Shown: positions 1,441 to 63,490 of the stretch, piece by piece
Layout: the number at the start of each line of letters is the position of its first letter
How positions within the stretch are numbered: position 1 is the stretch's first letter
NCBI RefSeq assembly: GCF_964355755.1
Contig: NC_092672.1
Location: forward strand, 4,154,001-4,218,000
DNA length: 64,000 nucleotides
Direction: 5' to 3'
DNA from: Antedon mediterranea
Lineage: Eukaryota > Animalia > Echinodermata
The notes under the pieces: model-generated
Told to the model about the DNA's origin: nothing
Databases searched by the model: none
The model's input: the letters and a program-made list of their open reading frames with translations, nothing else
Translations under genes and position numbers: made by a program

Positions 1441-2538
1441 ATGTCGAACCAGCACTCGGAGCAGGCTCTCTCATGGAGAAAATTATACCTCAGCCGGGCT
1501 AAACTAAAAGCTTCTAGTAGAACATCAGCTCTTCTAGCTGGCTTCGCCATGGTATGTTTTTGAAAATAAAACATATACTACTAACAGTTTAATTGTATTA
1601 TATTTAAACAATTAATAAATAAACAATTTTTACTAGATTTGATTTTATTTGGTTTCAACATAAGATTACAAGACAATCTGAATACAAACATTTTACAAGT
1701 ACTGTAAATACATAAATAAGAAACCAAGGATAGCCAAGCCCATAAAGAAAAATCAACTTGATTCCAATGGGGTCCTTTAAAAACAGCAAAGACAATCACA
1801 ACTAACAGCATAAACATACAAATCAAACGCGCATGACAATAATATATTTTAATGGCAGATGATATACAGTTTAAAAATATGAGACAATCGTCAATAGCCA
1901 GTGGATGACCTACTGTACAGCATGAACCTAGATTGGAATATAGTATTTGTTATAATGGCATAAGACCTGGCATAAGTGCTTTTTAACAGCATGTTTAAAA
2001 ATATTTTTTCATTCTATTTTATTATTAAATTTCTATTTTTTAGGTGGCGTTGGTTGAAATAAGCCTCCCTGTTGGTCTACCGACAGCTCTCATTATGTGT
2101 TTCAGCGTCATCACTATTCTACTCATAGTGACACATCTGTTTGCGCTACTCGTCAGTACGTGTATACTACCAAACATCGAAGCTGTCAGTAACATTGAAA
2201 ACATTAACGCTGTCAAAGAATCGCCTCACGAGAGTATGAGCACGTACATTGAACTATCGTGGATTGCTTCTACCGCCCTCGGTATCTTGCTATTCCTTTT
2301 AGAGATTATGGTTTTAATCTGGATTCAATTTTATGAAAACTACAAATACGCAGGGTATGTGGCGACTGCGCTACTAATACCCGCCTTGTTGGCTGTTTGC
2401 GTTTTTGCATATCATTTTTATCATAAGCTAGTCACGCATAAATACAAAAGTTATAATACGACGATTGATGAACTGGATGGACTCGCAACCGAGTTAGAAA
2501 ACAATACAGAAATGCATGGTGTTACACTAGAAGTGTAA
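1441..2538 (+). CDS. ORAI1: Orai calcium release-activated calcium channel subunit (2 coding exons: 1441-1551, 2044-2538)
   Basis: [30 protein letters not shown]|VALVE matches the Orai ETON/TM1 signature, with selectivity Glu and TM3 Glu (LFLLE). Phase-0 intron ATG|gtatgt...tag|GTG. An in-frame upstream ATG near 1417 is an alternative start. Confidence 0.95.
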
Positions 2539-16917: not shown

Positions 16918-18499
16918 TTAAAAGCCTTCCTGTTTTTCTTTGACGCAAACCTAGTAAACATAAAACAAATTTCATTCAGGTTTGACAGATACAAAAATTA
17001 ATTGTAAAACTACTATATATGTGTAATAGTTAATAGCTCACCCACCAATCATAATAATATTTTTTTTTGTATAGCGCTTAACCAGAATAAATTTTCTGTA
17101 AAGCACTACAACCACAAGGCTCGAACTAGGTGGAGATTACGTCATTTAATATGCTATACGAAAGAGCAACTGTTTGAAGATGTCAATAGAGTTGGCATTC
17201 TAGATTGATTGTGGAAGAGTTTTCCAGAATAAGTTTCAGTGACAAACCTTAAACCTCTCTTCCAAGAGAGAGACCTCACTAATAAGATCAGTGATGGCAT
17301 TGGTAAAAGCCTCTTGTGGGCTGTAGTCATTGCTTGTTTGTACTCGCAAAACAAACTTGTGTTCTAGAGGATGAGGAACCTTGTAACCAGCAAACAGTAC
17401 CTGTGGGTCTTTTAGTAGCTGTCTTAAAAATACAAACATAATACATTTATATGAAAGGACATCATTTGACACTGAAATTATTGTACCATTGGAACACTCG
17501 TAACAAAAGGGACATCCTATTTCGAGGATGTTTCCTCATGAAACGAACAATGGGAAATGTTTTATCACTACATCCAACCCCTACTCAGGGCACAGCCACT
17601 ATTCCGGCCACTTCCTTCTTTGGAGAGGGGGACGACACCTTTTATTAGGGGGAGGGGCAACCTTATTAGGGGAGGGGGAGGGGGGGGGGAGAAAGACACT
17701 TTGTTGGGTATTAATAATAGGGGTTCTATTCATACTACATAGTTCATATTCTATTATTTACAGAGCAGCATAACTCTGTAAAGTATTGTGTTATTCTGTA
17801 TTAAGTATTTCATTTAACCAGTGACAATTAATAATTTCACTCTTCCCTGTTTTAACTTACTGTCGGAGCATGTTGCCTAAGGTATGATCTTCTTTGTTGA
17901 CTGTGAATATTGCAGCATTTGGTACTTTGGTGTCCTTTTCAATTGTTATCCTGCCAAAAATAATCATTTTTCAATATTACAATACATACTAGTTTTACTA
18001 CTTAATAATATACAGTAGTAGGTCTATGTACTAAAAACAAATATTTAATAAATATAGTTATTATAGAGCCTAGCTAGCCTTGTTTGGTCTACCTAAACAT
18101 TCTTAAAAAAAGTTAATATAAATAATAATATTTATTTATATTAACAAATAGACCTAGGCTAGTAGTAGGTCAAAATAGCCTAGGTCTAGTCTATAGACTG
18201 TTAAACTAGATTATCTAGCCTTTAGTAAGTAGTTACAGTTGACACAAAAAAAACTTTAAAATATTCCTAGGCCCTAGGCCGAATCTACATGCAGATTTAT
18301 GGCAACGCAACCGCGTCCGTGCCGTGATTGATGTGAATGTCTGGCTTGTTGTTTAGACCTTTCACTAGCCTAGGCCTAGCTTCAAACCAATTGACGAGTC
18401 CTTAACTAACTAGAATTTTAATAAATGTACTGTTTGAAATACTCACTTTTTTTCTCCTTCAAACAGAATAAACGACTCAAATGTTGGAGGTGCATTCAT
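16918..18499 (-). CDS. POLR2J: RNA polymerase II subunit RPB11 (4 exons: 18499-18447, 17950-17861, 17422-17248, 16950-16918; 116 aa)
   Basis: [18 protein letters not shown]|[30 protein letters not shown]|[22 protein letters not shown]...LEERFK|[10 protein letters not shown]. Confidence 0.97.
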
Positions 18500-23986: not shown

Positions 23987-26900
23987 TCAAGGTAAATAAT
24001 TATAAAAATGCCATTCCATATTAACGACTAGGTCTGTTTCGTCTACAAACTCCTTTCCGATTACGCAATGATTTGACTTCCAATTGTAGGCGTATCCGTT
24101 GCATAGTATATATCTGTTGCACATGATTGCGCAGTCGTACATGGTTCTTACGGCTGTAGTCTCCGTAACGTGTTCACTGGCGAAAGTCGCTAGTTTGAGG
24201 AATCTGAAAATGCTGCCTTCTTCTTCAGAATACAGTTTGCTGATCAACGACGCTGCAGTTTGTTTCTGAATTGTTTCTAGAATAAAATAAAACAACTTAG
24301 GATGCCACAAAAAAGCAGGCGTTTATATATTTTACAATATTACAATGGAAACTGATTCACGATTTAAGGTATTGTGTTACAGTCGATAAAAAAATGTAAA
24401 ACCACACTTATTATGCTAAAGTTAAATTTGTCTCAATTATTGAACGAAAGAGATGGTATACGGTACCTTCGGAAGGAATTGTAAGAGCTGCCATCAGTTC
24501 TTTTCGAGTCATCGCTCGGTCGTAGAAGTGCATGTTCCTAACATTCCCCGATGCACCACCGCTAAACCCAATATCTACGCCGCTCCACGACATATCCGGT
24601 GTCTGAAACATTACCTTGCTGACAAAGAACCCATTCCTCCACAAAGACACAGTACCACCACCATCCTGAATAATGGCGATGGATGTCCAGACATCTGGTT
24701 TGAAGACCACACCGCGGAGCTTTCTAGCATGGTTACTAAAAGTTACTTCTATCTCGGACGCGTAGACTTGAGTTCCTGAATTTGTTTGTGTAATGTTAAT
24801 ATGTCCAGCAAAGAGTATTTCACCAACCGAGTTAGGCTCTGGTTTAATATCAAACATCAGAGTGCAGATTCCATCTTGAAATAACTGGCCGCGGTTTGGA
24901 ATTGAGATACTGCTGGGTATGCCATCGACGGGTAAGAGATCTGCGAATGCCACTCCAGTCGTGCTAATAAAATGAACTCTTGAGGCGCTGTAATCATAAT
25001 CCCTAACACCAGACAGATCATGGATCGTGTAGATTGAGTTCAATGGCCAAAAACCACGTGGGTTTAGTGGTAGGTCGTTTTGGTCAGCTTCTATAAAACA
25101 GTTTCATAACCATGTACAATGTATTATTTTACAGAAGTAATAACACAACAGAATCAATGATAGCAGCGTGCAAGCCATCAGACGTAATGTTAACGTGACG
25201 CGTTAGACCGGTTCCTACTGAACGTTAAACGAACAATTTCAAATCAACTTGTGTCAATTTTGCCCATTACTTTGCTTTGAAATTGTGTACAGTAGAAGAA
25301 TAGTGTATATCATGGAAAAATAAGCCTCTTTTTATCCATTGTCTAATATTAAAGCATCACTTCATACTACACAACGATTAAACTGTTTTTATTTATGTCA
25401 TTTGATACTCCCCAAAACAATTTAAATATAGTTCTAAGGATGTTTGTCTTTTGTAGTAAACGTGTATATTTATAGTATCTATAAAAATGTATATATTTAT
25501 CGTCGTTCGTTATCGTTCCAGTATATAAACAGGCCATAATTATATTAGAGTAGTGAAATATGAAACACAAAAAAATGATAGGCCTACCTTCCTCAGAGGA
25601 ATAGACAAAAACTTCACATATTGCAAGATTTCTATCTGACACTGACGTAATAAACACGTACGCACCGTTGATTGGTGGAGAACATAATACGTCAACTATC
25701 GCGCTAGAATTATACTGCTCAAAAGAAATAGTTTGACCACATTGAGTATTCTGAGCAGAATCAACTCCGTCATTGCCAATCAGAACTTTGGAATCATGCA
25801 AACTGTATTGCACCGGTGCTGTAAAAAATAAATGTAAATACAGAGAACTCATATTAAGGGGACACCTTCAGGACCCAAAAGAGGGTCTCCTGAATCGTAT
25901 CCGGATATTCACCCCCTGGACATTTACCCCCGGAAAACTACCCCCCGGACAACCACCACCTGGACCACTACCCCCTTAGGACAACTACCCCTTTAGGACA
26001 ACTACCCCCGGACAAATACCCCCCGGACAACTACCCCCTTAGGACAACTACCCCCTGGACAACTACCCCCCGGACAATTACCCCCGGACAATTACCCCCC
26101 CCCCCCCCGGACAATTACCCCCCCCCCCCCGGGTAATTACCCCGACAACTACCTCTGACACAATACTCCCCGTAGGACAACTACTTCCTGGACAATACTC
26201 CGAGGGCAAATAATCTTTTAGGACAACTACCTCCGTAGGACAACTAACCCCTGGACAACTACCCCCGGACAATTACCCCCTAGGAACAATTACCCCTGAC
26301 AATTACCCCCGGAGAATTCCCCCCCCCGGGTAATTACCCCGCGGACAACTGCCTCTGACACAATACTCCCCGTAGGACAACTACCTCCTGGACCTGGACA
26401 ATACTCCGAGGGTAAATAATCTTTTAGGACAACTACCTCCGTAGGACAACTAACCCCTGGACAACTACCACCCAGAAAACTATCCCTTTAGAACAACTAC
26501 CCCCCGAACGGACAACTACCACCCAGACCATTCAACAACCTGACTCTGCAACAACAGCGTATAATAGGAATTAATAACTATATTTTAATTCGTTACTTTG
26601 ACGAATTACTATTCATTATTGTAAACAAAAGTAAAAGATTGAACATAAATATAGCCTGGTATAAACTGAAGATTGTCACACATGATCATAGGATAGTCGA
26701 ACGTATTATATAGTACTCCCTGTATTTACTGTAAAGACTGGGTTCGCTAATAATAATAATAATTTTTGCGTCAGGACAATGCTTCGATAACCACTGGTCT
26801 TAAAAGAATTAATTTTTGTCTCAAATTTGTCATTTGTATTTTTGTACACTTGAAGAATAATATCACTTTTGATATTTGACCTCAATGTTCACTCACCGAA

Positions 26901-33562: not shown

Positions 33563-36500
33563 TTACATGGGATCAATCAAATTTGGTTGACCCGAGGTCA
33601 ATGCGCCAGCATTCATAGAGACTATTGGTTGTGGTTCATCAGTGAATTTCTATAAAAGAAAAATTAAGTCACTTTAATTAGGATTTTGATCGTTATAGCT
33701 TTTGTTGCATTCAAATTCGTTATGTTATCATTATTACTATATTTTATAAATCCAACGGCATATTACTGAAAAAAAGACAATACTGTGGGTATCAGTGGCT
33801 AGATCTCAATGGAGATACAAAATAAAATAAGCACTGAAAATGACAATGCTGTTGGTTTCAGTGGCTGGATCTCAATGGAGATACAAAATGACAATGCTGT
33901 TGGTATCAGTGGATGGATCTCAATGGAGATACAAAATAAATTAAGCACTGAAAAAATGACAATGCTGTTGGTATCAGTGGCTGGATCTCAATGGAGATAC
34001 AAAATAAAATAAGCACTGAAAATGACAATGCTGTTGGTTTCAGTGGCTGGATCTCAATGGAGATACAAAATGACAATGCTGTTGGTATCAGTGGATGGAT
34101 CTCAATGGAGATACAAAATGACAATGCTCTGGGTATCAGTGGCTGGATCTCAATGGAGATACAAAATGACAATGCTGTGGGTATCAGTGGCTGGATCTCA
34201 ATGGAGATACAAAATGACAATGCTGTGGGTATCAGTGGCTGGATCTCAATGGAGATACAAAATAAAATAAGCACTGAAAATGACAATGCTGTTGGTATCA
34301 GTGGCTGGATCTCAATGGAGATACTAAATAAAATAAGCACTGAAAAAATGACAATACTGTTGGTATCAGTGGCTAGATCTCAATGGAGATACAAAATAAA
34401 ACAAGGCTAAATCAAAAAGATAAAATAAAACAGCCAGAACAATTTGCAGAGCCTTCTGTAGGATAATCAAGCCTTCTAACTACTCAGCTATCCAACTCTT
34501 ACATTTTAAAGAGAAATTCTGGATTAAAATTATCAATAAAATATAATCAAACAATTTGGAATACAAAAATATTTGTAAACAACAGAAATGATAAAACCTA
34601 CAGTTGCACTTTAAATATTAATAATAAATCTCTGTTATCTGGGTTACGATTCAATTTACGTGGACAGACAAATCTCTCTCAAGGAAAAAGCAACAAATGA
34701 GGACAATATACCATAATGTTATGTCCATTATGTTACAAAAAAATCAAAGAAACACAAATGCTTTAAACATTCATGACGCAAGTAATTAGAACTTTAAGTA
34801 TCTAAATATCAATTTAACGAGCAATAAATAAAAATATAGAAACACAAAACAAAATAATAGCGTGGAAACATGAGAATGTAAGGGAAGCCGATAATGAAAT
34901 ATGCTGGGATGTAAAATGACTTAGCAATATTGATTATGCATTAAATGTAAATACAATACCAAGATAATAGAATAACCATAGACCTAATTTATAGGTCCAT
35001 GGAATAACGGTGAGAATTTAACCGATTTTCTATGATGCATTGTGGGATATCCGACAAGAAAGTTTTAGTAGACTTTGTTTCTATATATTTACTCCAAATT
35101 TTGTTCAATTAGGATGTGTATAAACAACTTAGGATGGTGTTCCATCTTCTGAATTTACACAACTTTTTTGGTTGTGGACGAAAACACCCTTTTGCTCAGC
35201 TTATTAAGGTAAATTTACACTGATGAGCAGTAACGGTGTGACGCGGAAAAACCAAATATAGAATAGTCATTTACACAAAACGCGGTGTCGGTCGGGCGGT
35301 TGAGCAGAAACCCGCTCAGGATAGAAACAGATTCTTAAAGCCCCATTCCCTACGTTTTTTAGATCTAATTTAAGATCACAAACTATATTTAATGTAAAAA
35401 TAATACTATATGGTCCTATTGCGATAACTTTTTTCGTCTTTAAACGGTTAAAAATGTGAAAAATAAATCGATTTTAATAATTATAGCGGCCCGCTATAAA
35501 TCCCAAAATGCATTGCGCGCGGATTGATATTTTTGTTTTTCACCTGTAATTCGCCCACTTTTCGATCGATCGTGAAGCCAAAACAAATGGAAGACTCCTA
35601 ACTTTTCAGCGAAAATACCGGGTGTTCCCCAATTTGTATCAACGGAGTCTGGCAAAAATAGAAAGACAATTAATGCAGCAACTATACAACGTCAGGCTAG
35701 GTATATAGCTAGCGTACGATGTTCGTACGTTACCGATGTTTACCAGCTAGGCCTACAAAACTAAGCCTAGCTAGGCTAGGCCTGAGACCGTCCACGAGAG
35801 TTCGATCGCCGGAGCTACTTAGGTAGTGCATTGTTTCTCACTTTTTATCATAATTTACCATAAAACGTACATTTAAGACAAGGAATGACATGGTTTAATG
35901 TTTTTAAAGTGATATATATGTATTATTTTCCAAAAAACGTCCAAAATTGCAGGGAAGGGGTCTTTAAGTTGTAGTGCACAATGAAAGATAAATATAAATG
36001 GGTACTATAAAGCTCTGTCTACACTATCAAACTAGTTTGACAACCAAATTTGGTATTTATATGCCCAAATATGGTAGTGATATATGACATGCTTCTGTCC
36101 ATATATGGGCAAATCACAATTTTTTGTCACATAAACTTTGTTAGTGTAAACAGAGCTTTACTAAATGAAAAAAAAAATGTATTCGTGAAGCAACATGCAA
36201 TCCCATCATGCAACAAAATAATGTCATGGACCAATTTCCTGAGTGACCTTTTAGTAGTAACCTATTTTCTTTTAGTATTTCTGTAATCTAATAACATAGC
36301 TCTTTCTCTGGTAGTTTCAGACAACATTATATATGGGATTCAATAACTGGATACTTGACTGCCAGTGACGGATCCAGGATTTTTCAATAGGGGATGGAGC
36401 GTGGGGACATGGCCTAAAATGGTAAAAGTAAATGCTGAACTTAAGCATTGCAATTTCCAAAAATTAGTGGGTGGGGCATTCCTTGAAAGTACATTAATAA

Positions 36501-39500
36501 TTGTAATCTTCTATGTTAAAATTAATATACCTCATCATTTTTAAAAAATATGATTGACAAATATTACTGTAATTTTCAAAAATTGATAAAAACAAAGGTT
36601 CAACTATTAAATTATGAAAAAATGAAATTTTAGTAAAAGTCAATAGATAGCTTTAAAGAATAAATTAAATGAGAATTTGTTTTGAAGAAAGAATAAATTT
36701 AGAAGTACTAGATCTTACATGGTTGTTGACTAATGTTCGTCTTGAGACCAGAGCTGCATGTCAGACGACTAAATCAAAAAACAGAGCAATGCGGACAAAT
36801 CAGAAATGATACTAAACTATAACCATGACATTTCTAAATACTATTTTACTTTTTTTTAGGTGCATATCCATGATTTTTACTATTTACTTATTTATTTAAG
36901 TTTGCTTCATATGGAGTATTTATTGAATCTGTTTTCTGTTTCACACCTTTAAGTGGCAACCTTCGTTGCTGTTGGTTTTGATGAAATAAAATAAATTAAT
37001 TAATGATAAGCAAGAGAGTGAACAATTTGGGTGTGGACGGGGAGTTGGCCATGTGCGGGCGGCTGATGACTGAAATGCAGTAAAACCTCTATTAAGGGGA
37101 CACTTTCCGGACCCAATCAAGTATCCCCTAATGTCCCCTGAATTGGGGTTGGCCATAGTGATAAAACATATAGGCCTATAATTGTTTGTTGTTATTTTCA
37201 CAGGAGAGTGTCCCCTTGTTTTTGCTATAGTTTATGGGCTTATGTCACTTTTGTTTAGGATTTGACATTATTTTGGGTGGATTTTTGGAATATATGGTCT
37301 AGAAGGAATAGTGTTTACTCTGTACATCAATTTTTTATTTTTTTTTAATTCTAAAATAATATATAAACAAACATGAATACAGGAATTTTCGGTTGAAGGC
37401 GTTTTCGCCTGGTAATCGCTCTGAAAAGACAGAACTAGAAAATATGGTAGAGGGCGGTGCAATGTATTATGTATTATGACAAAATTGTGAAATTTTATTG
37501 ACTATTTGTACGGTTTTGAAGACCAAAATTTGTCCAATTTGTTTTTAAAACTATATATGTACTGAGCATTAATGTAAAGAAATTTTTCCTTGCTCTAGTC
37601 TTAAAAAATGGTTTATAGATTTGGTATTTGTGTCCCCTCGTGGTAGCAAATGTATTTAAAAAAAAAACGAATTTCCAATATGTTTTATTGGACCAAATAA
37701 ATGTTGTGAAAGCAGCGCATTATTATTATTATTGAGTTCAAACAAGCTTTTGTAATATGCTGTAATCTTGCAATATAATAATATTGTAAAATCACAGTAA
37801 ACTAGCTGATTCACACATACAAACATTGACCAACAATAACCAAGTGTATCATTGCATTATTTAAGGGTCTTTCACACCTGTTCCGGCAAAATCCTAGCGA
37901 ACGTCAATGTTTCGTTTTCATGTGACTACGCTCATATCGATTGGCGCATAGCCGCATGAAAACAAACATTAATGTTTAATTCACCGGACCAGAACCGTGC
38001 CGGAACAGGTGTGAAAGACCCTTTAGAGCGTTGTAAACGTCCCAAGACCACATGCTAAATTTTAACACGTGAGGAAGGGCGCCAAATTCTACCGTGTTAA
38101 TAATTGGATATTGAATTTAAAAACTGAACACAATTTTCATTTATGAATCACTGTTTGTTTCTAATTCCTCACACGCTTTTTGAAAATAAAAAAAAAACAA
38201 ATTTTGTTTTTTAAATTAAAGAAATTTATTTTACCAAATTTCTCAGTAACAACTAATACTTTGATTGTATGTGTGACTATGGCATAGTTTGAAGCTTTGA
38301 TTACAACTAGTTTGTCTAGGTGCTAGATTATTTATATTTAAACCAAATGTTAAATACAGCAATTTAGGCCTATATAAAAATTATGAATTTGGTATATTGT
38401 ATGTTTTAAACATGCCAGACTACCTTACATTTTGAACAAGTAACCTGCATTGTTTGATAAACATTTACCAATAAACACAGTTAGAAAGAGGAATTGGATC
38501 ATAATTCTGCAAACAAATAAATAATCAGTTAAGCTCTGTCTACACTATCAAACTGTATGTGACAAGAAAATGTGATGTGCCCATATATGGGCATGATGAT
38601 ATCATGTCACTACCATATATGGGCACATCACATCTGTTTGTCTAACTAGTTTTACAGATGCTATTTTAAGATATGTTTAAATGTAGTTGTGATTACAATC
38701 ATCCTCATGTTAAACTGAAAACTAAGGAAATTTGGATTAGGTCATTTACGGACCCACAGCAGCAGTGCAGCGTCTACCATGATCACTGCACGAGGAGACT
38801 TACCACCTACACTTTTCAAATAGTGTACCAAGCAAATTCAACAAATTTATGTTCATCTGAAGGACGAGGCAATGAGAATAAAGAATTTTCACACAATCAA
38901 TATGGCACAGACATAGACAGGCTCGAATCCATGCCTGTCAAATGTTAGTTTGATCCCTTACCAATATGTCATATCACTTTCTGAAAGGTCTATACAGCAT
39001 CAGATTTTTTAACGACATTTTTAGTATAATATATTTAGCTTTTGTGTCTAAATACAATAATATAGTCATCAAATAATTGTATCATATAAACAGTTTTATA
39101 TTTATAATTTTCATGCATGTCACAGCCGTTCTATTGCATGTCACAGCCGTTCTATTGCATGTCACAGCCGTTCTATTGCATGTCACAGCCGTTCTATTGC
39201 ATGTCACAGCCGTTCTATTGCATGTCACAGCCGTTCTATTGCATGTCACAGCCGTTCTATTGCATGTCACAGCCGTTCTATTGCATGTCACAGCCGTTTT
39301 ATTGCATGTCACAGCCGTTCTATTGCTAATAAAAAATAAATTCTACTAAAGCTGCAAAAAGCGATGAGAAAGTAAACCAGTAATAATTATTTATGACCCA
39401 ATTGTGGAATAAACCTTGTCTTGGTTTTGTTTTATATTGTAACCAGAGTTTGATCAAACCAAATAATTGTCTATATTTTGTATTATTTTCAATGTCATTT

Positions 39501-42500
39501 GTAGTTTGTTGTGTGAAATCTATTTTTGAATTGTAAATAAGACATTTTTGTGTACAGCGCTTTGGGCTTTGGCAAAGGAGCTATAGAAATCACTATATAT
39601 AAAACAAATTAAGCAAAATCAAGGTTATAAAGTGTGTATACAAAAGTGACTGTTACACACGCTATATAGAGGGCTTCTACAATCAAAGTCAGTCAACGGT
39701 AAAAATACATTTAAGAACAAAAAATAACGCGACAAAGGTATGCCGTAAAACCTGGAATGAAAACGCAGACAACTGAAAAGAGTGACATGATTTTCTTTGT
39801 GATTTTGGTGCAAGAGGGCGCTCTACCAGCTAAAATAAAAGTATGAGCTATTATCTATTTTGACAGACTATACTAATATTCAAAGTTAGCGTTTAAAAAT
39901 GACTGGATCAACGTGTAAGCGGCTTCTATTCAAGGTTTTACGGCACGAGTGAAGAATGACATTTGACCTACATTGCATTATGATGAAACAGGTTGAGGAG
40001 GTTGAGATTTCGATGCATCATGAATGCGATGATATGGCTGTAAAAAGATGAACGCGTAATACATAGCATGAACAAACAATGAATTTGCTCAACTATCGCA
40101 AAGAACAAATAAATGAGACTTAAGCTCTGTCAACATTATCAAACTTGTTTGACAAAAAAGGTTTGATGTGCCCAACCAGTGATATTCCCAAATATAGTAG
40201 TGATATGACAGCATCATGTCCATATACGGGCACGTCACATTTTTTTGCCACATAAAGTTTGATAGTGTAGACAGAGCTTTATGGTGTGCTTATAAATTAT
40301 TTTGAAAAGAAAATTTGATGGGTACTATAATATGCAACATATTATTGTAATGTAACATTTTTTAAAGCTATTTGAAAATGTTCTTTTAATTTTCATACCA
40401 ATCATTCATTTATTTAGCATTTACGTTAATGCCAAATACAAACAAATACAATTATAATCTGTTGAGCAAATTAATTGAAGAGATAAATTTATCAAAACAA
40501 CATTCCAAAGGTTAACAAAAAAGGGAGGGCAGAGGGAGGGAGGGTTAAAAAACATAAAGTAAACATTTAAATAAGGTTTAAAAGTAAATAATAAACCCAA
40601 AATCTAAAAATAAGAAAATTATATTCTTTGAAAATTATTATTATCATAAATCAATACTATGTTTTCAAATACAGTAAAGGCTCTGTTAAGGGGACACCTT
40701 CTGGACAAAATAAAATATCAACCTCAATAGCGGTGTCCCCCAAATAGGGGTTGATAATAGTGATACAATTGGCAATTGTACTGGAGAGTGTCCCCATAAA
40801 AGGTGTCCCCTGAATGCTCCAAATTAGGGGTTATATTTTTTAATGTTTTTTTATGATGCTGGATATTTTTTCAAAAAAATAATATGTTACATTGATATGC
40901 AAAGCATGATATCGACATAGCTGTAGCAATGTATAATAGTATAGTATTCTACTGAATAATAATCATCATGTAATATATACAGTATGTATTTTGAGAAAAT
41001 AAAGTTGAAAGATGAAATTAACTTACGTTATACTCATCGCTATCAGCATTCTCAACATACAAGTACTTCTTACTTTTATAGTAATTGCCCTTCTTTAGGA
41101 TGTAAAATGTGATGATGTCACACATTACAGTTGCCTAGTAACATGAAACAAAAGAAACTTTATAAAAATCCATGAAAACTGGAATCCAATCTGAATTACT
41201 GTAGAACATTTAAGATTGGGAACTTTTGTTGTCAACATAAATATTCATTGAGTATTTTTTGTAATTCAAATAGTAAATTGTAAACGGATTTTGCTCAAGA
41301 GAAAGTCATTTGAATAGAAAACGTTGACAATGCAAGCTTTGCCATTAAGAACAATTTCAACGCTCAAAATAAATAAGTACTTAACGGAAAAACTATATTT
41401 AACAGTAAATTCGCAATCGAATACAACAATTATAATAGATACAAAATTATAAATCTGTTATGTATTTATTGCTTATCGACATTTCTTTAAATTCATTAGT
41501 ACTCATGTGTCTACTGACTGCCCTAGTAGACAGCATGATTTCATCAATATCCTGTAATTTTAAAAATTTGACCAACTGGGGAGTAGGCACTTGTTTGGCT
41601 ATAAATCTAGTCCAGAATATAAGGTTACAATTCTAAATGAATGAATCTGTAAAACGTTACCGAATAGCCATTTAAACAACTTGCTTTTGTTATGCTCAAC
41701 ATTTTATCTCTTTTGTTTTTTAACTTACTAACTAACTTGTTTTATACAGTATTTTTTTTAATGTATTTTTGCATATTTGTATTGTAGGGGCCCTCATGAG
41801 ACAAGCTATTGCTTCTAGCGCTGGACAGAGTTATTGTCAAATAACTGAATAAATCTGTATGAATGAACTATATTTAACAGTAAATTCGCAATCGAATACA
41901 GCAATTATAATAGATAAAATATTATAAATCTGTTATGTATTTATTTCTTGACATCTTTAAATTTATTAGTACTCTTGTGTCTATTGTATTGTGTCTTCTT
42001 TTTGTGTATTTTTGCATATTTGTATTGTAGGGGCACTCATGAGACAAGCTATTGCTTCTAGCGCTGGACACAGTTATTGTCAAATAACTGAATAAATCTG
42101 TATGAATGAATGAATGTTCAATAAATAAGCTATGCAACTAGTGTAAACTCACAATAGAGAGCAAAGCCAGCCCAGCTCCCAGGTTGGTAGTCAGTGGAAT
42201 GAAGTTAAATTTTCCTGCGGTTCCTGTAACAATGACCTCAAATAAAATACCATACGCCTTTGTTAACGTCCTGTATTCTGTATGGTTCTTTACATAGAAT
42301 TTTCCAAACCTGAGAAAAATAAAAGAATAAAACATTATTGAAAGTTTGCATGGTGAAATCAAATGTTGACAGAAAGTCCAGGAAACTGGGAATATCAGTG
42401 AAATAGGGTGGGACTGGTGTGAAAGCTAAAAACAATAGCAAGTTTACAGTGGGAGGGATTGAAAAACATATTTAATTTGAAATATGACATAATAAATAAA

Positions 42501-45500: not shown

Positions 45501-47002
45501 GCATATATTCAAAAAAAATTTTTTCAGGGGGACAATACATCTTTAACTAAGAAACTAACTAACTAAGAATCCAATGAAAATATTGTTTAACTTACCTCTG
45601 CACAAACTCCCCTGGTCTGTTCAGGGGTTATAACCATGTTTGTCATAACAAAAAAGGCATTATCCATCTGAAAAATAAAGAAACAAATTATTATTCTACA
45701 ATTGCTATTCAAACCAAGAGTGAGATCCCTAATTAGATACTTTACCAGTACATAGTTAAAGCCTTGTCCACACTATCAAACTTCATGTGACAAAGTGTGA
45801 TGTGCCCAAATATGGTAGTGATATGTAACACTGTGGTCAAGGGTCAAATCTTGTCCACAAGCACACAGATATGTTAGAAGAGAAATCTCTCTTCCAAACA
45901 CATTTAAACCAAGGCATCACCAAAGTTTTGTTTTATGTCAATCCAAATGTAAAATTGGGTGGGAGGAGCAATACACTTTCGGCTTGTAGTAGTGTCTAAG
46001 GCTGTGTTTGTGTTTCTGCAAATTATACAGTAGGTTAATTGTGTAAAAGTGTCAGTCATTACCGAGCAACCAGTAGCCCAATCGCAACGCAACAATTTGC
46101 CCTTCAGTTTAAAAGTTAAAAATTATCGCATTTATTGGATAATTATCTGATTTGAATTTCTGCGCAGAATTAGAAAGAAACTTTATCGGTTAATTATCGA
46201 TTATTTGAAACACGGCTTTAGTAATATTAATATTAAAGTGTCTCATTAATATTAATATTTTTTTAATCGGGAGAAATTGCATTTAGCGGTAGATTATTTT
46301 AAATATCGGTAAACTCCTGTGATTATCGGGAGAGTGTGGAGGTCTGTAAAATGAATATTTTTATTAAAATACTATTTATTAGCAATACCATAGGAGGAAT
46401 GACATAGTCTACTGGATCCCAGATTCTGTTATATGGACCAACATCTTCTATCGAGAGATTTGGGTTGCCAGTAATGTTTGTGTAAGCAACTCCTTTTAAC
46501 TTGGTTGTTACTGCACTAACAACTTCATCTTTCTCCTGGTAACCCTTTTGCAGAATAATGGCCCATCTGTAAAACAAAAAATAAAGATTTAGGCTAGCAT
46601 GAAAGAAGTCAATATAGGATTTTTTTAAATAATAAAACAAATATCACAAATTAATAATAAATCATTTGTTTGGGTAATATTAGAGCATGGTCCATGATTA
46701 GAGTCAGAGTAGGCAAAGTGGGCCGAAACGTCCCTGATTTTTAAAATACCTAGGTTTATATGGCTATGTCACACGCATCATCACTGCAGACTGGCCTACT
46801 CTTAACCGGCTAGGCTAGCCTACCCTACTACTACTAGGCATTTTACTTACACGACAACATAGACGATAACACCGATTTGAATCAAACGATTTATAAAGCC
46901 GACTTTCTTGCTTTTTATGTGAACAACTTTAGGTGTATCATATTCAAGCGCGGAGTCTACAGCTATCCTACTCCAAGAGCTTACAGTTTCCTTAAACGGC
47001 AT
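33563..47002 (-). CDS. P2RX4: P2X purinoceptor, P2X4-like (exons 47002-46851, 46566-46389, 45667-45596, 45112-45034, 44413-44308, 43828-43742, 43401-43260, 42660-42530, 42309-42153, 41134-41027, probable terminal exon 33649-33563)
   Basis: EYDTPK, TTKLKG, WDPVDYV, WCPVE, FTVLIKN, FCPVF, WDCNLD, GYNFRF, LTKAYGI, TM2 ..VMCD and YxxKKY motifs, with all 10 ectodomain Cys. The terminal exon assignment is less certain, and the symbol reflects similarity, not proven orthology. Confidence 0.92.
33765..34400. repeat. Compound minisatellite of 48-bp and 66-68-bp units (GATCTCAATGGAGATACAAAA..TGACAATGCTGTTGGTATCAGTGGCTG)
   Basis: Directly visible; produces spurious repetitive ORFs on both strands. Confidence 0.93.
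35335..35967. mobile_element. Non-autonomous DNA transposon with TTAA flanks (Kolobok-like)
   Basis: TTAA-AGCCCCATTCCCTACG ... TGCAGGGAAGGGGTCT-TTAA; imperfect TIRs. Confidence 0.6.
36010..36158. mobile_element. MITE family A copy
   Basis: Both TIRs recognisable. Confidence 0.8.
37861..38024. mobile_element. MITE with about 27-bp TIRs (AAGGGTCTTTCACACCTGTTCCGGCA)
   Basis: Inverted copy TGCCGGAACAGGTGTGAAAGACCCTT at the right end. Confidence 0.85.
39113..39326. repeat. Minisatellite, 21 bp x 10 (CATGTCACAGCCGTTCTATTG)
   Basis: Near-perfect tandem copies in a P2X intron. Confidence 0.97.
40122..40279. mobile_element. MITE family A copy
   Basis: Both TIRs recognisable. Confidence 0.8.
43510..43690. 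mobile_element. MITE family B partial copy in a P2X intron
   Basis: AGCGTGGTTCCCA...GTATTGACGCAAAGTGCTGTATTGCGTAACCAC, shared with the other copies. Confidence 0.7.
44503..44658. mobile_element. MITE family A copy
   Basis: AAGCTCTGTCTACACTATCAAAC...AGTGTAGACAGAGCTT. Confidence 0.85.
45241..45546. mobile_element. MITE with TTAA TSD (Kolobok-like)
   Basis: TTAA-AGATGTATTGTCCC ... GGGACAATACATCT-TTAA. Confidence 0.8.
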
Positions 47003-50720: not shown

Positions 50721-51616
50721 GGGTATATACGAAACGATATTAAAAGTAGTGACTTTTATTTCTATTTTATATCACTGTGCTACCCTGGTGCTAAATTAAT
50801 AATAATAACAGGATTTTTATAGCACACATACCACTCAAGAGTGCTCAAGGCGCATAGAATTGGGTCCACTTGAGCAGTTACCGTAGTACTATTTCTATTA
50901 TTGAAGTTGATAAAGGTATAGTAGAGAATGCTCCAGTCGTCAGAATGACGCTTTGGCTCAATATACCTCGCGGTACCAGTATAACTAAATGCTGACCTAG
51001 ATGAGGGCGTATTTCAAGATACGTCATGCATGGATGCCTTCTTTTATTTGTGTTTTGTGTGTAAAACTTCATAAGAGTTTGTATTGTACTTTTCTTCCAT
51101 CTGTGTAGGTCTTATGTATAAAAGTAAGGCTATTTCTGTATTTAAATACTTTTTGAATAAGTTTTGAAATCGTAGGTAGCCTAGAAATGTTCATTTTAGT
51201 AAAAGGGGCTTCTAGGCCTAGTAGCCTAGGCTACTACTAACTAGTACTACTCTAGTACTAGCTAGAGGTAGGCTAGTAGTAGTACTACTTAGTAGTAGTA
51301 GTAGCCTACTAGCTAGGCCTAGAAGTCTACTAGGTAGGTTAGGGAGAGAAATCAGCCAGTAGTACCAGTACCGGCAGTAGCCTAGTACCTATATAGTCCT
51401 ACTACTACTATTTTAAAGCCTACTTGTAGGCTGTACTATACGGTGTCACTAAGTGCATTTCGGCGAGGTAGACATCATCGACTGTTTGGACTCTGTTCAG
51501 CAGGGGGTTATAGTTAGTATATGAAAATAACCAGAATATATCAATAATTAAATATGTGTGGATTTTTGTAAATGAAGTTCTTTTATTCCAATTTTTTTTC
51601 AGAACTGTTGCATCAA

Positions 51617-54600
51617 ATGGCAACCGCAAAGCGTGTGCAAAATGTGCTATTACTCGGAGGAACCCATGGCAATGAGATGTCTGGTGTATATGTAGCTAAA
51701 CAATTTCTAAAAAACCCAGCGCAAATTACAAAAGATTCATTTAAAACTACAGTTTTGATGGGAAATCCGATGGCTGTGGAAAAATGCACAAGATATATTG
51801 ATGTAGACTTAAATCGACAGTTTACTAAAGAGAATTTAAAGTAGGATATTATATACTTATTATATACTATTTTACCGATACTATTTAAAGATCATTATGA
51901 TGGGTAATGAATACAAACTTTGTTGAGAAGCACTTGCTTCCAGTGGCGTAACACAGAGGCATGAGGCTCCTGGTTTAGGGCGTGGTCTCAAGCGTTTTTA
52001 GCTATTTTCAACATATTTTAATGCCTGTTTTTTCCTGTGGGCACTGCTCAGGGACCCCCATAAGGTCCGGGACCCCTGGGTTTAGCCAGTGAGCACTCAT
52101 AGTCGTTACGCTACTATTAGCTTCCCTCCTCCATCAAACACAAATGTAGATGAATTAATAATCATCATAATGTTTATTTGGTTTCTAACAATTAATAAGT
52201 AGTGAGAAACATATCTGCATAAATAAAACATAATGGTTTTTCCGAGACATTTCAAACTATTATTAAATCAACATAATATCTCACTTTATATTTGTTTCCC
52301 TTTCAGTGGTACCAATCCCAAAACAAATTATGAAGTCAAAAGAGTAAGAGAAATGTGGGAGACTTTATCAACACATTCTACAAATCCTGACGTTGTTTTA
52401 GATATGCACAATACTACAGCAAACATGGGCAATTGTTTTATAATTAAAAACCAAAATCAGATTTTTGACTTGCATCTTATTAACTATGTAGTGAAAAAGG
52501 CTACATTTTCTGCCCCTGCTCATATCCTATGCATTAGCAGTCCAAACCATGCATACAGCTGTAGCAGAGACATTGCACCAAATGGCTTGGGTAAGATATT
52601 AAGGCATTCAAAATTATATACTATAATGCACAGGGTTTTAAACTTTGTGCCCTAATTCTGTTGAACCGTGCAGTGGATTGAAATGTCAGTTTAAACATAC
52701 ATTTTTTTTGTTCTAATTAATACAGTAGAATAGTATTATGGGATGCCTTCTGGACCCAACAAAGTGTCCCTTTTAATTGGGGTTGGGTGTACAAATAATA
52801 TTACCCATGTTTGTTTTATGGAAAGTGTTCCCTTAATAAAGTGTTCATCAAATAGCTGTGTCACACTCAGGAAGGATTCTACTGTATGTGAAATCATCAT
52901 TCTTTTTTTATTTTTGCCTTCCATACCTGACCTGTTTTACTGGCTGATTGACCTTCATGACCTATTTATTAATTCCTTTTTCTTCAGCGTTAGAGCTAGG
53001 CCCGCAACCTCAGGGTATACTACTTTTTTTATTTTTGCCTTCCATACCTGACCTGTTTTACTGGCTGATTGACCTTCATGACCTATTTATTAATTCCTTT
53101 TTCTTCAGCGTTAGAGCTAGGCCCGCAACCTCAGGGTGTACTACTTTTTTTATTTTTGCCTTCCATACCTGACCTGTTTTACTGGCTGATTGACCTTCAT
53201 GACCTATTTATTAATTCCTTTTTCTTCAGCGTTAGAGCTAGGCCCGCAACCTCAGGGTGTACTACTTTTTTTATTTTTGCCTTCCATACCTGACCTGTTT
53301 TACTGGCTGATTGACCTTCATGACCTATTTATTAATTCCTTTTTCGTCAGCGTTAGAGCTAGGCCCGCAACCTCAGGGTATACTACTTTTTTTATTTTTG
53401 CCTTCCATACCTGACCTGTTTTACTGGCTGATTGACCTTCATGACCTATTTATTAATTCCTTTTTCTTCAGCGTTAGAGCTAGGCCCGCAACCTCAGGGT
53501 GTACTACTTTTTTTATTTTTGCCTTCCATACCTGACCTGGTTTACTGGCTGATTGACCTTCATGACCTATTTATTAATTCCTTTTTCTTCAGTGTTAGAG
53601 CTAGGCCCGCAACCTCAGGGTGTACTACTTTTTTTATTTTTGCCTTCCATACCTGACCTGGTTTACTGGCTGATTGACCTTCATGACCTATTTATTAATT
53701 CCTTTTTCTTCAGCGTTAGAGCTAGGCCCGCAACCTCAGGGTGTACTACTTTTTTTATTTTTGCCTTCCATACCTGACCTGTTTTACTGGCTGATTGACC
53801 TTCATGACCTATTTATTAATTCCTTTTTCTTCAGCGTTAGAGCTAGGCCCGCAACCTCAGGGTGTACTACTTTTTTTATTTTTGCCTTCCATACCTGACC
53901 TGTTTTACTGGCTGATTGACCTTCATGACCTATTTATTAATTCCTTTTTCGTCAGCGTTAGAGCTAGGCCCGCAACCTCAGGGTATACTACTTTTTTTAT
54001 TTTTGCCTTCCATACCTGACCTGTTTTACTGGCTGATTGACCTTCATGACCTATTTATTAATTCCTTTTTCTTCAGCGTTAGAGCTAGGCCCGCAACCTC
54101 AGGGTGTACTACTTTTTTTATTTTTGCCTTCCATACCTGACCTGGTTTACTGGCTGATTGACCTTCATGACCTATTTATTAATTCCTTTTTCTTCAGTGT
54201 TAGAGCTAGGCCCGCAACCTCAGGGTGTACTACTTTTTTTATTTTTGCCTTCCATACCTGACCTGGTTTACTGGCTGATTGACCTTCATGACCTATTTAT
54301 TAATTCCTTTTTCTTCAGCGTTAGAGCTAGGCCCGCAACCTCAGGGTGTACTACTTTTTTTATTTTTGCCTTCCATACCTGACCTGTTTTACTGGCTGAT
54401 TGACCTTCATGACCTATTTATTAATTCCTTTTTCTTCAGCGTTAGAGCTAGGCCCGCAACCTCAGGGTGTACTACTTTTTTTATTTTTGCCTTCCATACC
54501 TGACCTGTTTTACTGGCTGATTGACCTTCATGACCTATTTATTAATTCCTTTTTCGTCAGCGTTAGAGCTAGGCCCGCAACCTCAGGGTATACTACTTTT

Positions 54601-57412
54601 TTTATTTTTGCCTTCCATACCTGACCTGTTTTACTGGCTGATTGACCTTCATGACCTATTTATTAATTCCTTTTTCTTCAGCGTTAGAGCTAGGCCCGCA
54701 ACCTCAGGGTGTACTACTTTTTTTATTTTTGCCTTCCATACCTGACCTGGTTTACTGGCTGATTGACCTTCATGACCTATTTATTAATTCCTTTTTCTTC
54801 AGTGTTAGAGCTAGGCCCGCAACCTCAGGGTGTACTACTTTTTTTATTTTTGCCTTCCATACCTGACCTGGTTTACTGGCTGATTGACCTTCATGACCTA
54901 TTTATTAATTCCTTTTTCTTCAGCGTTAGAGCTAGGCCCGCAACCTCAGGGTGTACTACTTTTTTTATTTTTGCCTTCCATACCTGACCTGGTTTACTGG
55001 CTGATTGACCTTCATGACCTATTTATTAATTCCTTTTTCTTCAGTGTTAGAGCTAGGCCCGCAACCTCAGGGTGTACTACTTTTTTTATTTTTGCCTTCC
55101 ATACCTGACCTGGTTTACTGGCTGATTGACCTTCATAACCTATTTATTAATTCCTTTTTCTTCAGTGTTAGAGCTAGGCCCGCAACCTCAGGGTGTACTA
55201 CTTTTTTTATTTTTGCCTTCCATACCTGACCTGGTTTACTGGCTGATTGACCTTCATGACCTATTTATTAATTCCTTTTTCTTCAGCGTTAGAGCTAGGC
55301 CCGCAACCTCAGGGTGTACTACTTTTTTTATTTTTGCCTTCCATACCTGACCTGTTTTACTGGCTGATTGACCTTCATGACCTATTTATTAATTCCTTTT
55401 TCTTCAGCGTTAGAGCTAGGCCCGCAACCTCAGGGTGTACTACTTTTTTTATTTTTGCCTTCCATACCTGACCTGTTTTACTGGCTGATTGACCTTCATG
55501 ACCTATTTATTAATTCCTTTTTCGTCAGCGTTAGAGCTAGGCCCGCAACCTCAGGGTATACTACTTTTTTTATTTTTGCCTTCCATACCTGACCTGTTTT
55601 ACTGGCTGATTGACCTTCATGACCTATTTATTAATTCCTTTTTCTTCAGCGTTAGAGCTAGGCCCGCAACCTCAGGGTGTACTACTTTTTTTATTTTTGC
55701 CTTCCATACCTGACCTGGTTTACTGGCTGATTGACCTTCATGACCTATTTATTAATTCCTTTTTCTTCAGTGTTAGAGCTAGGCCCGCAACCTCAGGGTG
55801 TACTACTTTTTTTATTTTTGCCTTCCATACCTGACCTGGTTTACTGGCTGATTGACCTTCATGACCTATTTATTAATTCCTTTTTCTTCAGCGTTAGAGC
55901 TAGGCCCGCAACCTCAGGGTGTACTACTTTTTTTATTTTTGCCTTCCATACCTGACCTGTTTTACTGGCTGATTGACCTTCATGACCTATTTATTAATTC
56001 CTTTTTCTTCAGCGTTAGAGCTAGGCCCGCAACCTCAGGGTGTACTACTTTTTTTATTTTTGCCTTCCATACCTGACCTGTTTTACTGGCTGATTGACCT
56101 TCATGACCTATTTATTAATTCCTTTTTCGTCAGCGTTAGAGCTAGGCCCGCAACCTCAGGGTATACTACTTTTTTTATTTTTGCCTTCCATACCTGACCT
56201 GTTTTACTGGCTGATTGACCTTCATGACCTATTTATTAATTCCTTTTTCTTCAGCGTTAGAGCTAGGCCCGCAACCTCAGGGTGTACTACTTTTTTTATT
56301 TTTGCCTTCCATACCTGACCTGGTTTACTGGCTGATTGACCTTCATGACCTATTTATTAATTCCTTTTTCTTCAGTGTTAGAGCTAGGCCCGCAACCTCA
56401 GGGTGTACTACTTTTTTTATTTTTGCCTTCCATACCTGACCTGGTTTACTGGCTGATTGACCTTCATGACCTATTTATTAATTCCTTTTTCTTCAGCGTT
56501 AGAGCTAGGCCCGCAACCTCAGGGTGTACTACTTTTTTTATTTTTGCCTTCCATACCTGACCTGGTTTACTGGCTGATTGACCTTCATGACCTATTTATT
56601 AATTCCTTTTTCTTCAGTGTTAGAGCTAGGCCCGCAACCTCAGGGTGTACTACTTTTTTTATTTTTGCCTTCCATACCTGACCTGGTTTACTGGCTGATT
56701 GACCTTCATAACCTATTTATTAATTCCTTTTTCTTCAGTGTTAGAGCTAGGCCCGCAACCTCAGGGTGTACTACTTTTTTTATTTTTGCCTTCCATACCT
56801 GACCTGGTTTACTGGCTGATTGACCTTCATGACCTATTTATTAATTCCTTTTTCTTCAGTGTTAGAGCTAGGCCCGCAACCTCAGGGTGTACTACTTTTT
56901 TTATTTTTGCCTTCCATACCTGACCTGGTTTACTGGCTGATTGACCTTCATAACCTATTTATTAATTCCTTTTTCTTCAGTGTTAGAGCTAGGCCCGCAA
57001 CCTCAGGGTGTACTACTTTTTTTATTTTTGCCTTCCATACCTGACCTGGTTTACTGGCTGATTGACCTTCATGACCTATTTATTAATTCCTTTTTCTTCA
57101 GCGTTAGAGCTAGGCCCGCAACCTCAGGGTGTACTACTTGCTGAAATGTACCAAAGAATGCAAGAACTTGTCATCAATTCTATGATTTTTATAGAAGACT
57201 TTAACTCAGGTTTTTTTTTCATTTTTTATTTCTTATTTTATTAATCACAATTTTTATGTATTTTATGCTACATGGGTGTATTACTGTATTATTAATTATT
57301 CGTGATAATTAGACGTACCATTTATTTTGTATCACCAGAATATATATATATATACAGTATTTCTTTTACAAGAATATTTCTTAAGCATGGAAAAATAAAC
57401 CCATGGGGGAAA

Positions 57413-57443
<31 letters not shown>

Positions 57444-58182
57444 TATAAATTAAACAAAACTAATAATATAATATTTTGGTTTTGCTGTTCTATGTAATTC
57501 TTTTATGTTTTTTTGCACAACTTTTCATCAATATAATTTAACAACAAAAAAAAGATTTTTAATTTATTTTTTTTATCATAGGTGTCATCTCAGACTCATT
57601 TCAAACAGATGCCTACAACATAACGGATAAAGTAGACTTCCCACGAGACGCTGATGGTAATATAACAGCCATGATACACCCACGTTTACAGGTATATTTA
57701 ATGAAAATCATTGAATAAAACTACTGTAAACATATCTATATAATCTTGTATTTTTTAATTGCCTACACTACCAAACTTTATGTGACAAAAAAATGTGATG
57801 CGCCCATATATGGACATGATGATGTCATATCACTATCATATTTGGGCATATCACTACCACATTTGGGCACATCACACTTTTTTTGTCAAACTAGTTTGAT
57901 AGTGTAGACAGAGCTTAAGAAATAAAATGTGAATGTTTTTTACACTAAAAATATGCAAAAATTAAACATTAATTTAAAATTTCATTTTAGGACAGAGACT
58001 GGGAAGCAGTCAACAAGGGTGACCCCTTATTTCTGACCTTTGATGGTAAGACGATTACGTATGATAAACAAGAGACGAGATATCCAGTTTTTATAAATGA
58101 AGCCTCATATTATGAAAAAAATCTTGCTTTCTGGCTAACACGTAAAGAAACATTAAATATACCATCATTGAAAATGGAGTGA
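51617..58182 (+). CDS. ASPA: Aspartoacylase (exons 51617-51840, 52307-52590, 57102-57209, 57582-57691, 57991-58182)
   Basis: GGTHGNE, RYIDVDLNR, LDMHNTTANMG, YSCSR, ALELGPQPQG, VDFPRD, IHPRLQ|DRDW and NEASYYEK. Zn ligands and catalytic residues are intact, and the GT-AG junctions are in phase. Confidence 0.95.
52902..57139 (+). repeat. Tandem array, 35 x 121 bp; each unit is the intron 3' end (branch point, polypyrimidine tract, AG) plus the first about 35 nt of ASPA exon 3
   Basis: Acceptor-proximal exon starts at 52988 + 121n up to 57102 (n = 0-34). Only the last copy runs into the rest of the exon. Confidence 0.98.
57760..57916. mobile_element. MITE family A copy in the last ASPA intron
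   Basis: Right TIR AGTTTGATAGTGTAGACAGAGCTT intact; left TIR degenerate. Confidence 0.8.
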
Positions 58183-62570: not shown

Positions 62571-63154
62571 TAGGGTTCCTAATCCCTGTGTTACACCACT
62601 GCTACTGGGATTTTTTGCCAATATGTCTATCGGTTGTGCATATTTTATCCAAATACATATCTTAGTTTATTTCACAAATATAGAATTGCATGCAATAATC
62701 AAGATTATATTAACTTGACATTATTATTAAAAGACGTTAAAATCGTTTCCTAATAATTTATCGTTTCCGGATCCGTGTTTGTTCCGGTTCTTTTATTGCT
62801 TATCACCACAAAGCTTTAAATAAATGTATTTAAAGATACAGTATTAACAGATCGCTTTAAAGGTTAAACACAGTCTTCTACTAAAATAGTTATTTTGGTT
62901 GGTTTATAAGGTTGACTTGGTGCAAAAATAGATTTATCAAAAGCAATTTGTGATACCGATGGCTATATTTTGTTGAGTGAGTTGATTTGTGTATCGCACA
63001 AAGCAACAGTGGAGGCGTCATTGCCACAATAAATAACAATGGTGGTCACCCGGGCCTCTTATTCATGTTGTCACCATATAATCGACGGTAACATTATCCC
63101 ATTCATTCAATTAGGATGCATCCTTCGCTGTCAACCTCTCATTGTTCATTGTCA

Positions 63155-63490
63155 CCATCATCAATCGACAGCAACATTATCCCATTCATTCAATTACCAT
63201 CTCATTCATAGTCATCATCAACAATCGACAGCAACATTATCCCATTCATTCAATTACCATCTCATTCATAGTCATCATCAACAATCGTTAGCAACATTAT
63301 CCCATTCTTTCAATTACCATCTCATTCATAGTCATCATCAACAATCGACAGCAACATTATCCCATTCTTTCAATTACCATCTCATTCATTGTCATCATCA
63401 ACAATCGACAGCAACATTATCCCATTCTTTCAATTACCATCTCATTCATTGTCATCATCAACAATCGACGGCAACATTATCCCATTCATC
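63155..63490. repeat. Minisatellite, 60 bp x about 5.5
   Basis: CATCAACAATCGACAGCAACATTATCCCATTC(A/T)TTCAATTACCATCTCATTCAT(A/T)GTCAT tandem copies. Confidence 0.93.

Follow-up and report, generated by a model that had tools for sequence, protein, structure and literature searches.

A 35-copy minisatellite at an intron/exon junction of an ASPA/ACY3-family gene in the feather star Antedon mediterranea, probably a silent mirage

Minisatellite-like duplications of intron-exon borders, so-called mirages, are described for the amphioxus globin, Adh3, troponin C and PGBD5 genes. As far as the excerpts of these reports go, the splice signals are kept in the duplicates and the mRNA is undisturbed (PMC3087553, PMC3902484). 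Human junction minisatellites are, according to the excerpted account, mostly silent, with the nearest pseudo-sites sometimes used (PMC1557585). Here we describe a 35-copy minisatellite in a crinoid ASPA/ACY3 gene, the unit of which derives from the border between the catalytic exon and its preceding intron. It is located in a window of 64,000 nucleotides from Antedon mediterranea (the whole stretch of DNA analysed; all positions refer to it). Among the literature matches listed no paper on this locus was found. As in mirages, all 35 units span the boundary (86 nt of intron plus 35 nt of exon) and all 35 have preserved splice signals. Probably the array is a silent mirage, i.e., a junction minisatellite which is likely recent and likely removed together with the intron.

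The host gene and the anatomy of the array

The coding parts of the host gene are the following; exon numbers adhere to the scheme of the first-pass annotation, to which a further short coding exon near 51114 has to be added upstream.

51110..51123, + strand: short upstream coding exon (ATG at 51114) with which the RefSeq protein would begin, placed according to the N-terminus of protein P0001
51603..51840, + strand: exon 1, ASPA/ACY3 family (PF24827), with an in-frame ATG at 51617
52307..52590, + strand: exon 2 (PF24827), whose 3' end appears in contigs of runs X5 and X8 as the loose end connected with the acceptor
57102..57209, + strand: genuine exon 3 of 108 nt, containing the Glu equivalent to E178 (alignment, contigs, RefSeq splice)
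57582..57691, + strand: exon 4, 110 nt (contigs, RefSeq splice)
57991..58182, + strand: exon 5, up to the stop codon (PF04952)

A high-copy element is present at 57763-57919.

Four of the five exon peptides match PF24827 or PF04952; the 35-aa peptide of exon 3 is the one without a domain match. When aligned with ACY3 and with residues 177-210 of human ASPA, this peptide places its Glu at the position of E178, the catalytic role of which is well established in the human enzyme. With AstE/AspA catalytic and hybrid domains and the catalytic Glu motif the gene is a member of the ASPA/ACY3 family. Joining 51617-51840, 52307-52590, 57102-57209, 57582-57691 and 57991-58182 generates an open reading frame of 305 aa, which is identical in 305 of 305 positions to P0001, i.e., RefSeq XP_071944003.1 (Antedon mediterranea), a computed annotation. 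The active-site motif is present once in this protein and once each in P0002 and P0003. The first-pass annotation had correctly proposed both the identity of the gene and the presence of the catalytic Glu in the copied motif.

The intron between exons 2 and 3 carries the array.

52591-52901: unique 5' part of the array-bearing intron
52721..52886, strand not given: small MITE-like element bounded by terminal inverted repeats, with its end 15 nt upstream of the array
52902..57139, + strand: tandem array of 35 x 121 bp (TRF, unit alignment, DNA contig depth)

TRF reports a period of 121, 35.0 copies and 98% matches for 52902-57139, and the spacing is exactly 121 bp in every one of the 35 units. 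Each unit consists of the last 86 nt of the intron followed by the first 35 nt of the catalytic exon, and the exon part encodes the E178-equivalent glutamate. The CAG acceptor and its pyrimidine tract are kept in 35 of 35 units. AG dinucleotides occur solely at unit positions 85, 91, 93, 97 and 111, which leaves about 93 AG-free nucleotides, and branch-like motifs are positioned 58 to 16 nt upstream of the acceptor. The acceptor is followed by CG in 24 units and by TG in 11. A Val base is present in 11 of the 35 units; this site, at which Ala and Val alternate, is two residues ahead of the catalytic Glu. Indels are absent from the exon part of all 35 units, and neither of the polyadenylation signals AATAAA and ATTAAA is found on the + strand of the unit. 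Solely unit 35 extends into the 108-nt exon, and it is the only copy of the acceptor with a real donor after it. A 3-nt microhomology is common to the 5' flank junction of the array and the exon sequence at the end of the unit.

Five variable sites define six unit types (A through F), which are arranged in the order ABBCBDEBCBDEBCBDEDFEBCBDEBCBDEDFDFE. In pairwise comparison the mean difference between units is 1.7 of 121 positions, and the largest is 5. Higher-order periods of 5 units (17 of 30 type matches) and 13 units (14 of 22) emerge. This combination of near-identity and periodicity indicates concerted evolution within the array, and the two periods point to repeated unequal exchange.

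Near-perfect identity of the units is also what a spurious expansion during assembly would produce. We compared contigs from five of nine listed sequencing runs, X1 and X5 from organism A and X6, X7 and X8 from organism B. X1 is probably the assembly's own sample and tests the assembly rather than the population. Seven X1 contigs on the unit were used (of eight among the matches listed; one contig at 2.6x was left out). These are allele-specific, and their depths follow the 31-mer multiplicity in the assembly with r=0.995 and a slope of 250x per copy, the flanks being at 283 and 294x; a shorter second haplotype or bias could account for this difference. At unit position 34 the T:G ratio is 4479:4452 compared to 17:18 in the assembly. 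Because contig depth tracks copy number in this manner the array is not an assembly error, and the unit-to-unit junction is present in a second sample (X5) as well. As an explanation for the existence of the array an artefact is already refuted, and we regard it as the least probable of all readings. Depth proportional to multiplicity, the read-depth check suggested by the first-pass annotation, has upheld the array, and its description of the locus stands: 35 tandem copies of a 3' splice site plus exon start, an AG-free stretch of about 90 nt with branch-like motifs, pyrimidine tract and CAG, and only copy 35 continuing into the real exon.

Splicing across the array

The runs X5, from a second sample of organism A, and X8, from organism B, were judged to be RNA-type solely from their spliced contigs, as none of the listed runs is recorded as RNA. 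For organism A the RNA-type data are from one run, X5. X8 contains one contig of 1578 nt spliced through exons 2-5. In X5 a total of four contigs match 57016-57290. The first (580 nt, 29.2x) joins exon 2 to the acceptor, the second (828 nt, 51.2x) is spliced through exons 3-4-5, the third is a shared node of 39 nt at 95x, and the fourth is a loop of 142 nt at 88.8x which connects the exonic portion of a unit with the intronic portion of the unit that follows. The two spliced contigs and the identical RefSeq protein demonstrate a regular mRNA, next to which minor forms are possible. Contig depths are crude, and, with 38 shared nt, contigs assembled from 31-mers do not reveal to which identical acceptor exon 2 was joined. 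The uncovered bins in X5 (57244-57300 and 57415-57528) and X1 (57146-57205) were not used alone as evidence. In X5 only the G allele is seen at 57049, as would be expected if the last seven units were used; this was rejected as evidence because assemblers collapse variants.

The array likely leaves with the intron because only the last acceptor has a real donor after it. The spliceosome would define the exon across this sole acceptor and the donor 108 nt downstream, the other 34 acceptor copies would be discarded with the intron, and stray read-through messages would be cleared by nonsense-mediated decay (NMD). The array itself would have no selected function. With 35 units in the X5 animal, a loop depth of 678-1189 would be expected if the first acceptor were always chosen, and 339-594 for random choice; in this rough comparison the observed 88.8 is far lower. 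The first-pass annotation had left the spliceosome two options, skipping 34 decoys or generating microexon isoforms. Skipping fits the data; for microexon isoforms no support was obtained.

Some X5 RNA-type sequence nevertheless contains array units, which counts against a fully silent array. The loop depth of 88.8 exceeds that of both mRNA contigs (29.2 and 51.2), whereas across the neighbouring intron a spliced contig is present. It is conceivable that in a minor part of the transcripts exon 2 is joined to an acceptor further upstream, and that these transcripts read through the following units, encounter a stop and are degraded, so that a longer array would lower enzyme output. Read-through from an upstream acceptor resulted in a premature stop for all eight acceptors tested. 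From acceptor 34 the product is 223 aa long with a stop 67 nt before the exon-3 donor; from the seven others it is 230 aa with a stop at least 167 nt before it. The NMD rule sets a threshold of 50-55 nt between stop and junction. Since they are 67 nt or more before the exon-3 donor, these stops satisfy the rule. The decoy acceptors and the frameshift upon unit read-through had been correctly recognised at first pass. Use of nearby pseudo-sites has a precedent in the junction minisatellites of human CBS intron 13 and gene 6-16, according to the excerpted report (PMC1557585). If the X5 animal has 35 units, the loop amounts to about 3.7x per copy, i.e., at most about 7-13% of the mRNA contigs. 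However, unspliced pre-mRNA, excised intron or DNA carry-over (about 3.7x per copy times 35) gives the same contig. Further, the X5 depths do not sum cleanly, as the array alone predicts the whole shared node (95.1 compared to 95). Leakage of this kind is unlikely.

An extension of this thought is a copy-number dial. Up to about a tenth of the transcripts would end on decoys and be lost to NMD, array length would set the aspartoacylase dose between individuals, and through exchange of units Ala could be replaced by Val at the site two residues ahead of the catalytic Glu. We consider this proposal quite unlikely.

The first-pass annotation had suggested a potential array of in-frame microexons, with the internal GT of each unit serving as donor such that the mRNA would gain 27-nt pieces and the protein would gain repeats of the active-site peptide.

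52988..53014, + strand: copy 1 of the suggested 27-nt microexon, the use of which as an exon finds no support (frame arithmetic, contigs, donor score)

The arithmetic is correct: the piece has 27 nt, which is within the limit for regulated microexons (27 nt or less), preserves the frame with phase 1-1 and is separated from the next by a spacer of 94 nt. The exon part is free of indels in all 35 units, and a slightly better donor variant exists in 6 of 35. The donor, however, is at background strength. Scored by a simple count of Watson-Crick pairs with U1, using the U1 consensus and not a trained model, the proposed donors form 3 or 4 pairs and do not qualify as a functional 5' splice site, whereas the four real donors scored form 5, 6, 7 and 8. 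Of 3326 other GT sites in the window 82% and 68%, respectively, score as well as the two proposed variants. The genuine exon-3 donor, which had been called weak, has 7 of 11 possible pairs; weakness is a property of the microexon donors. The claimed likeness of one donor variant to the exon-4 donor fails because the latter has a full exonic CAG and a T at +6. Further, the proposed GT belongs to the conserved motif, where it is the Gly-Val codon pair, and X5 as well as X8 read through it in genuine exon 3. A junction from the 27th exon base to the acceptor would create 28 new 31-mers; the search recommended at first pass detected it in none of the four X5 contigs. As contigs drop rare variants, this argues only against microexons as the main form. 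The Srrm3/4 motif is a TGC near the acceptor; TGC is absent from the last 25 nt before the acceptor. In addition, organism B has no copy of the proposed microexon, and P0001 through P0003 each have a single motif copy. Taken together, in-frame microexons are highly improbable, and the array is likely a tolerated repeat. Recursive splicing sites were considered separately and rejected, as the acceptor AG is not directly followed by GT in any of the 35 units.

Age and meaning of the array

Organism B is a close relative, represented by the DNA-type runs X6 and X7, both samples from one study. Each of these runs has one contig that traverses a single unit and extends for >800 nt beyond it into unique upstream sequence. 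In X6 this contig has 1248 nt at 36.9x, compared to 39-42x for the flanks; in X7 it has 1041 nt, and its loose end by eye resembles the flank directly before unit 1 of the window. The end of the MITE-like element is present in organism B as well. A recent amplification is probable, since organism B has one acceptor in two DNA samples and the assembly has 35. Judged from these sequences, amplification in the lineage of organism A is the simplest reading, the less likely alternative being loss in organism B. Three Anneissia proteins are devoid of a motif repeat; together with the single acceptor of organism B this speaks against conservation of the proposed microexon among relatives. At the same junction, isoform X3 of Anneissia carries an insert of 34 aa; it was rejected, as it does not repeat the motif. 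The array may have originated by a microhomology-mediated duplication, followed by unequal crossing-over.

The same window contains a second junction array at 9020-9221, on the donor side, with three donors, in a PF10436 gene. Its presence in the same window suggests that such arrays are not rare in the feather-star genome.

As a tolerated mirage the array is of little importance alone, yet it widens the class known from amphioxus so as to include crinoids. It shows that splicing can proceed past 34 near-identical decoy acceptors spread over 4.1 kb. As the single-copy state is available in a relative for comparison, the locus constitutes a natural test of exon definition versus first-come scanning. 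Its importance would be greater if array length did change the enzyme dose or if microexons were included.

Comparison with described junction repeats

While right about the decoy acceptors, the first-pass annotation did not recognise that amphioxus mirages and human junction minisatellites constitute a known class. As in the mirages of Adh3, the globins BflGb6 and BflGb9, troponin C and PGBD5, an intron's 3' end together with an exon's 5' portion is repeated in tandem, specifically as in BflGb6; the unit size is within the reported 10-160 bp, the splice signals are intact, the units are homogenised, and the normal mRNA is the form seen (PMC3087553, PMC3902484). Differences exist, as far as the excerpts of these reports go. 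The hosts are cephalochordates on one side and a crinoid on the other. The haplotypes of BflGb6 have 6 and 3 copies, the feather star has 35. In BflGb6 the boundary units are excluded from homogenisation, whereas the last feather-star unit is not set apart. Finally, unlike in the amphioxus mirages, the repeated stretch of exon codes for a catalytic residue.

Human CBS 844ins68 likewise is a duplicated intron/exon junction in which, in the excerpted account, the distal site is strongly favoured and the mRNA is normal; it has one extra copy of 68 bp compared to 34 extra copies here, and it was tested experimentally in human cells (PMC2630376). The minisatellites of human F7 IVS7, CBS IVS13, LMNB2 and gene 6-16 share with the feather-star array many identical pseudo-splice sites across an exon border, yet in the excerpted report they are donor-side arrays, whereas the feather-star array is on the acceptor side (PMC1557585). 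Thus, the feather-star array likely belongs to the known class of mirages and is notable only for its copy number and for the catalytic motif that is copied.

Units of the aspartoacylase array

The 35 units of the 121-bp array (52902-57139) are not uniform at the first exon base, 11 of them carrying T in place of C. A T-bearing unit, if it came to stand in the last position, would replace Ala by Val two residues ahead of the catalytic Glu. In X5, a run judged to be RNA-type from its spliced contigs, one contig (record 9, matching 57016-57136 of the window) reads through from unit to unit; at 88.8x its depth exceeds that of the spliced mRNA contigs.

Neighboring elements and genes

The window has two small MITE-like elements, of inverted-repeat or very high-copy character:

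52721-52886, stopping 15 nt upstream of the array
57763-57919, matched by tens of thousands of contigs

The window holds 13 arrays, together about 8.2 kb of its 64 kb, among them these further minisatellites:

33765-34405, 48/66-bp unit
39114-39326, 21 bp x 10
63145-63489, 60 bp x 5.8, inside open frames

The aspartoacylase gene is arranged head to head with a P2X receptor gene. Other genes were located as follows, the P2X receptor gene included:

2044-2535, plus strand, Orai-1
17239-17535, minus strand, RNA polymerase Rpb11-type exon
23990-25103, minus strand, PAN / laminin-G gene
42141-42425 and 46326-46643, minus strand, P2X receptor gene

Exon junctions in a kinase gene and in another crinoid

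A second junction repeat of the window is located at 9020-9221 (minus strand, 71-bp unit) in a gene for a BCKDK/PDK-type kinase (PF10436). Its unit combines about 40 nt from the end of a PF10436 exon with the GTAAGT donor of that exon; the exon-end copies measure about 39-43 nt each and are bordered by AG and GT. Three such donors are present:

9176, minus strand, GTAAGT donor
9105, minus strand, GTAAGT donor
9031, minus strand, GTAAGT donor

As for the aspartoacylase junction, residues 170-203 of Anneissia japonica isoform X3 (P0003), in which no repeat of the catalytic motif was found, constitute an annotated 34-aa insert at the corresponding exon junction.
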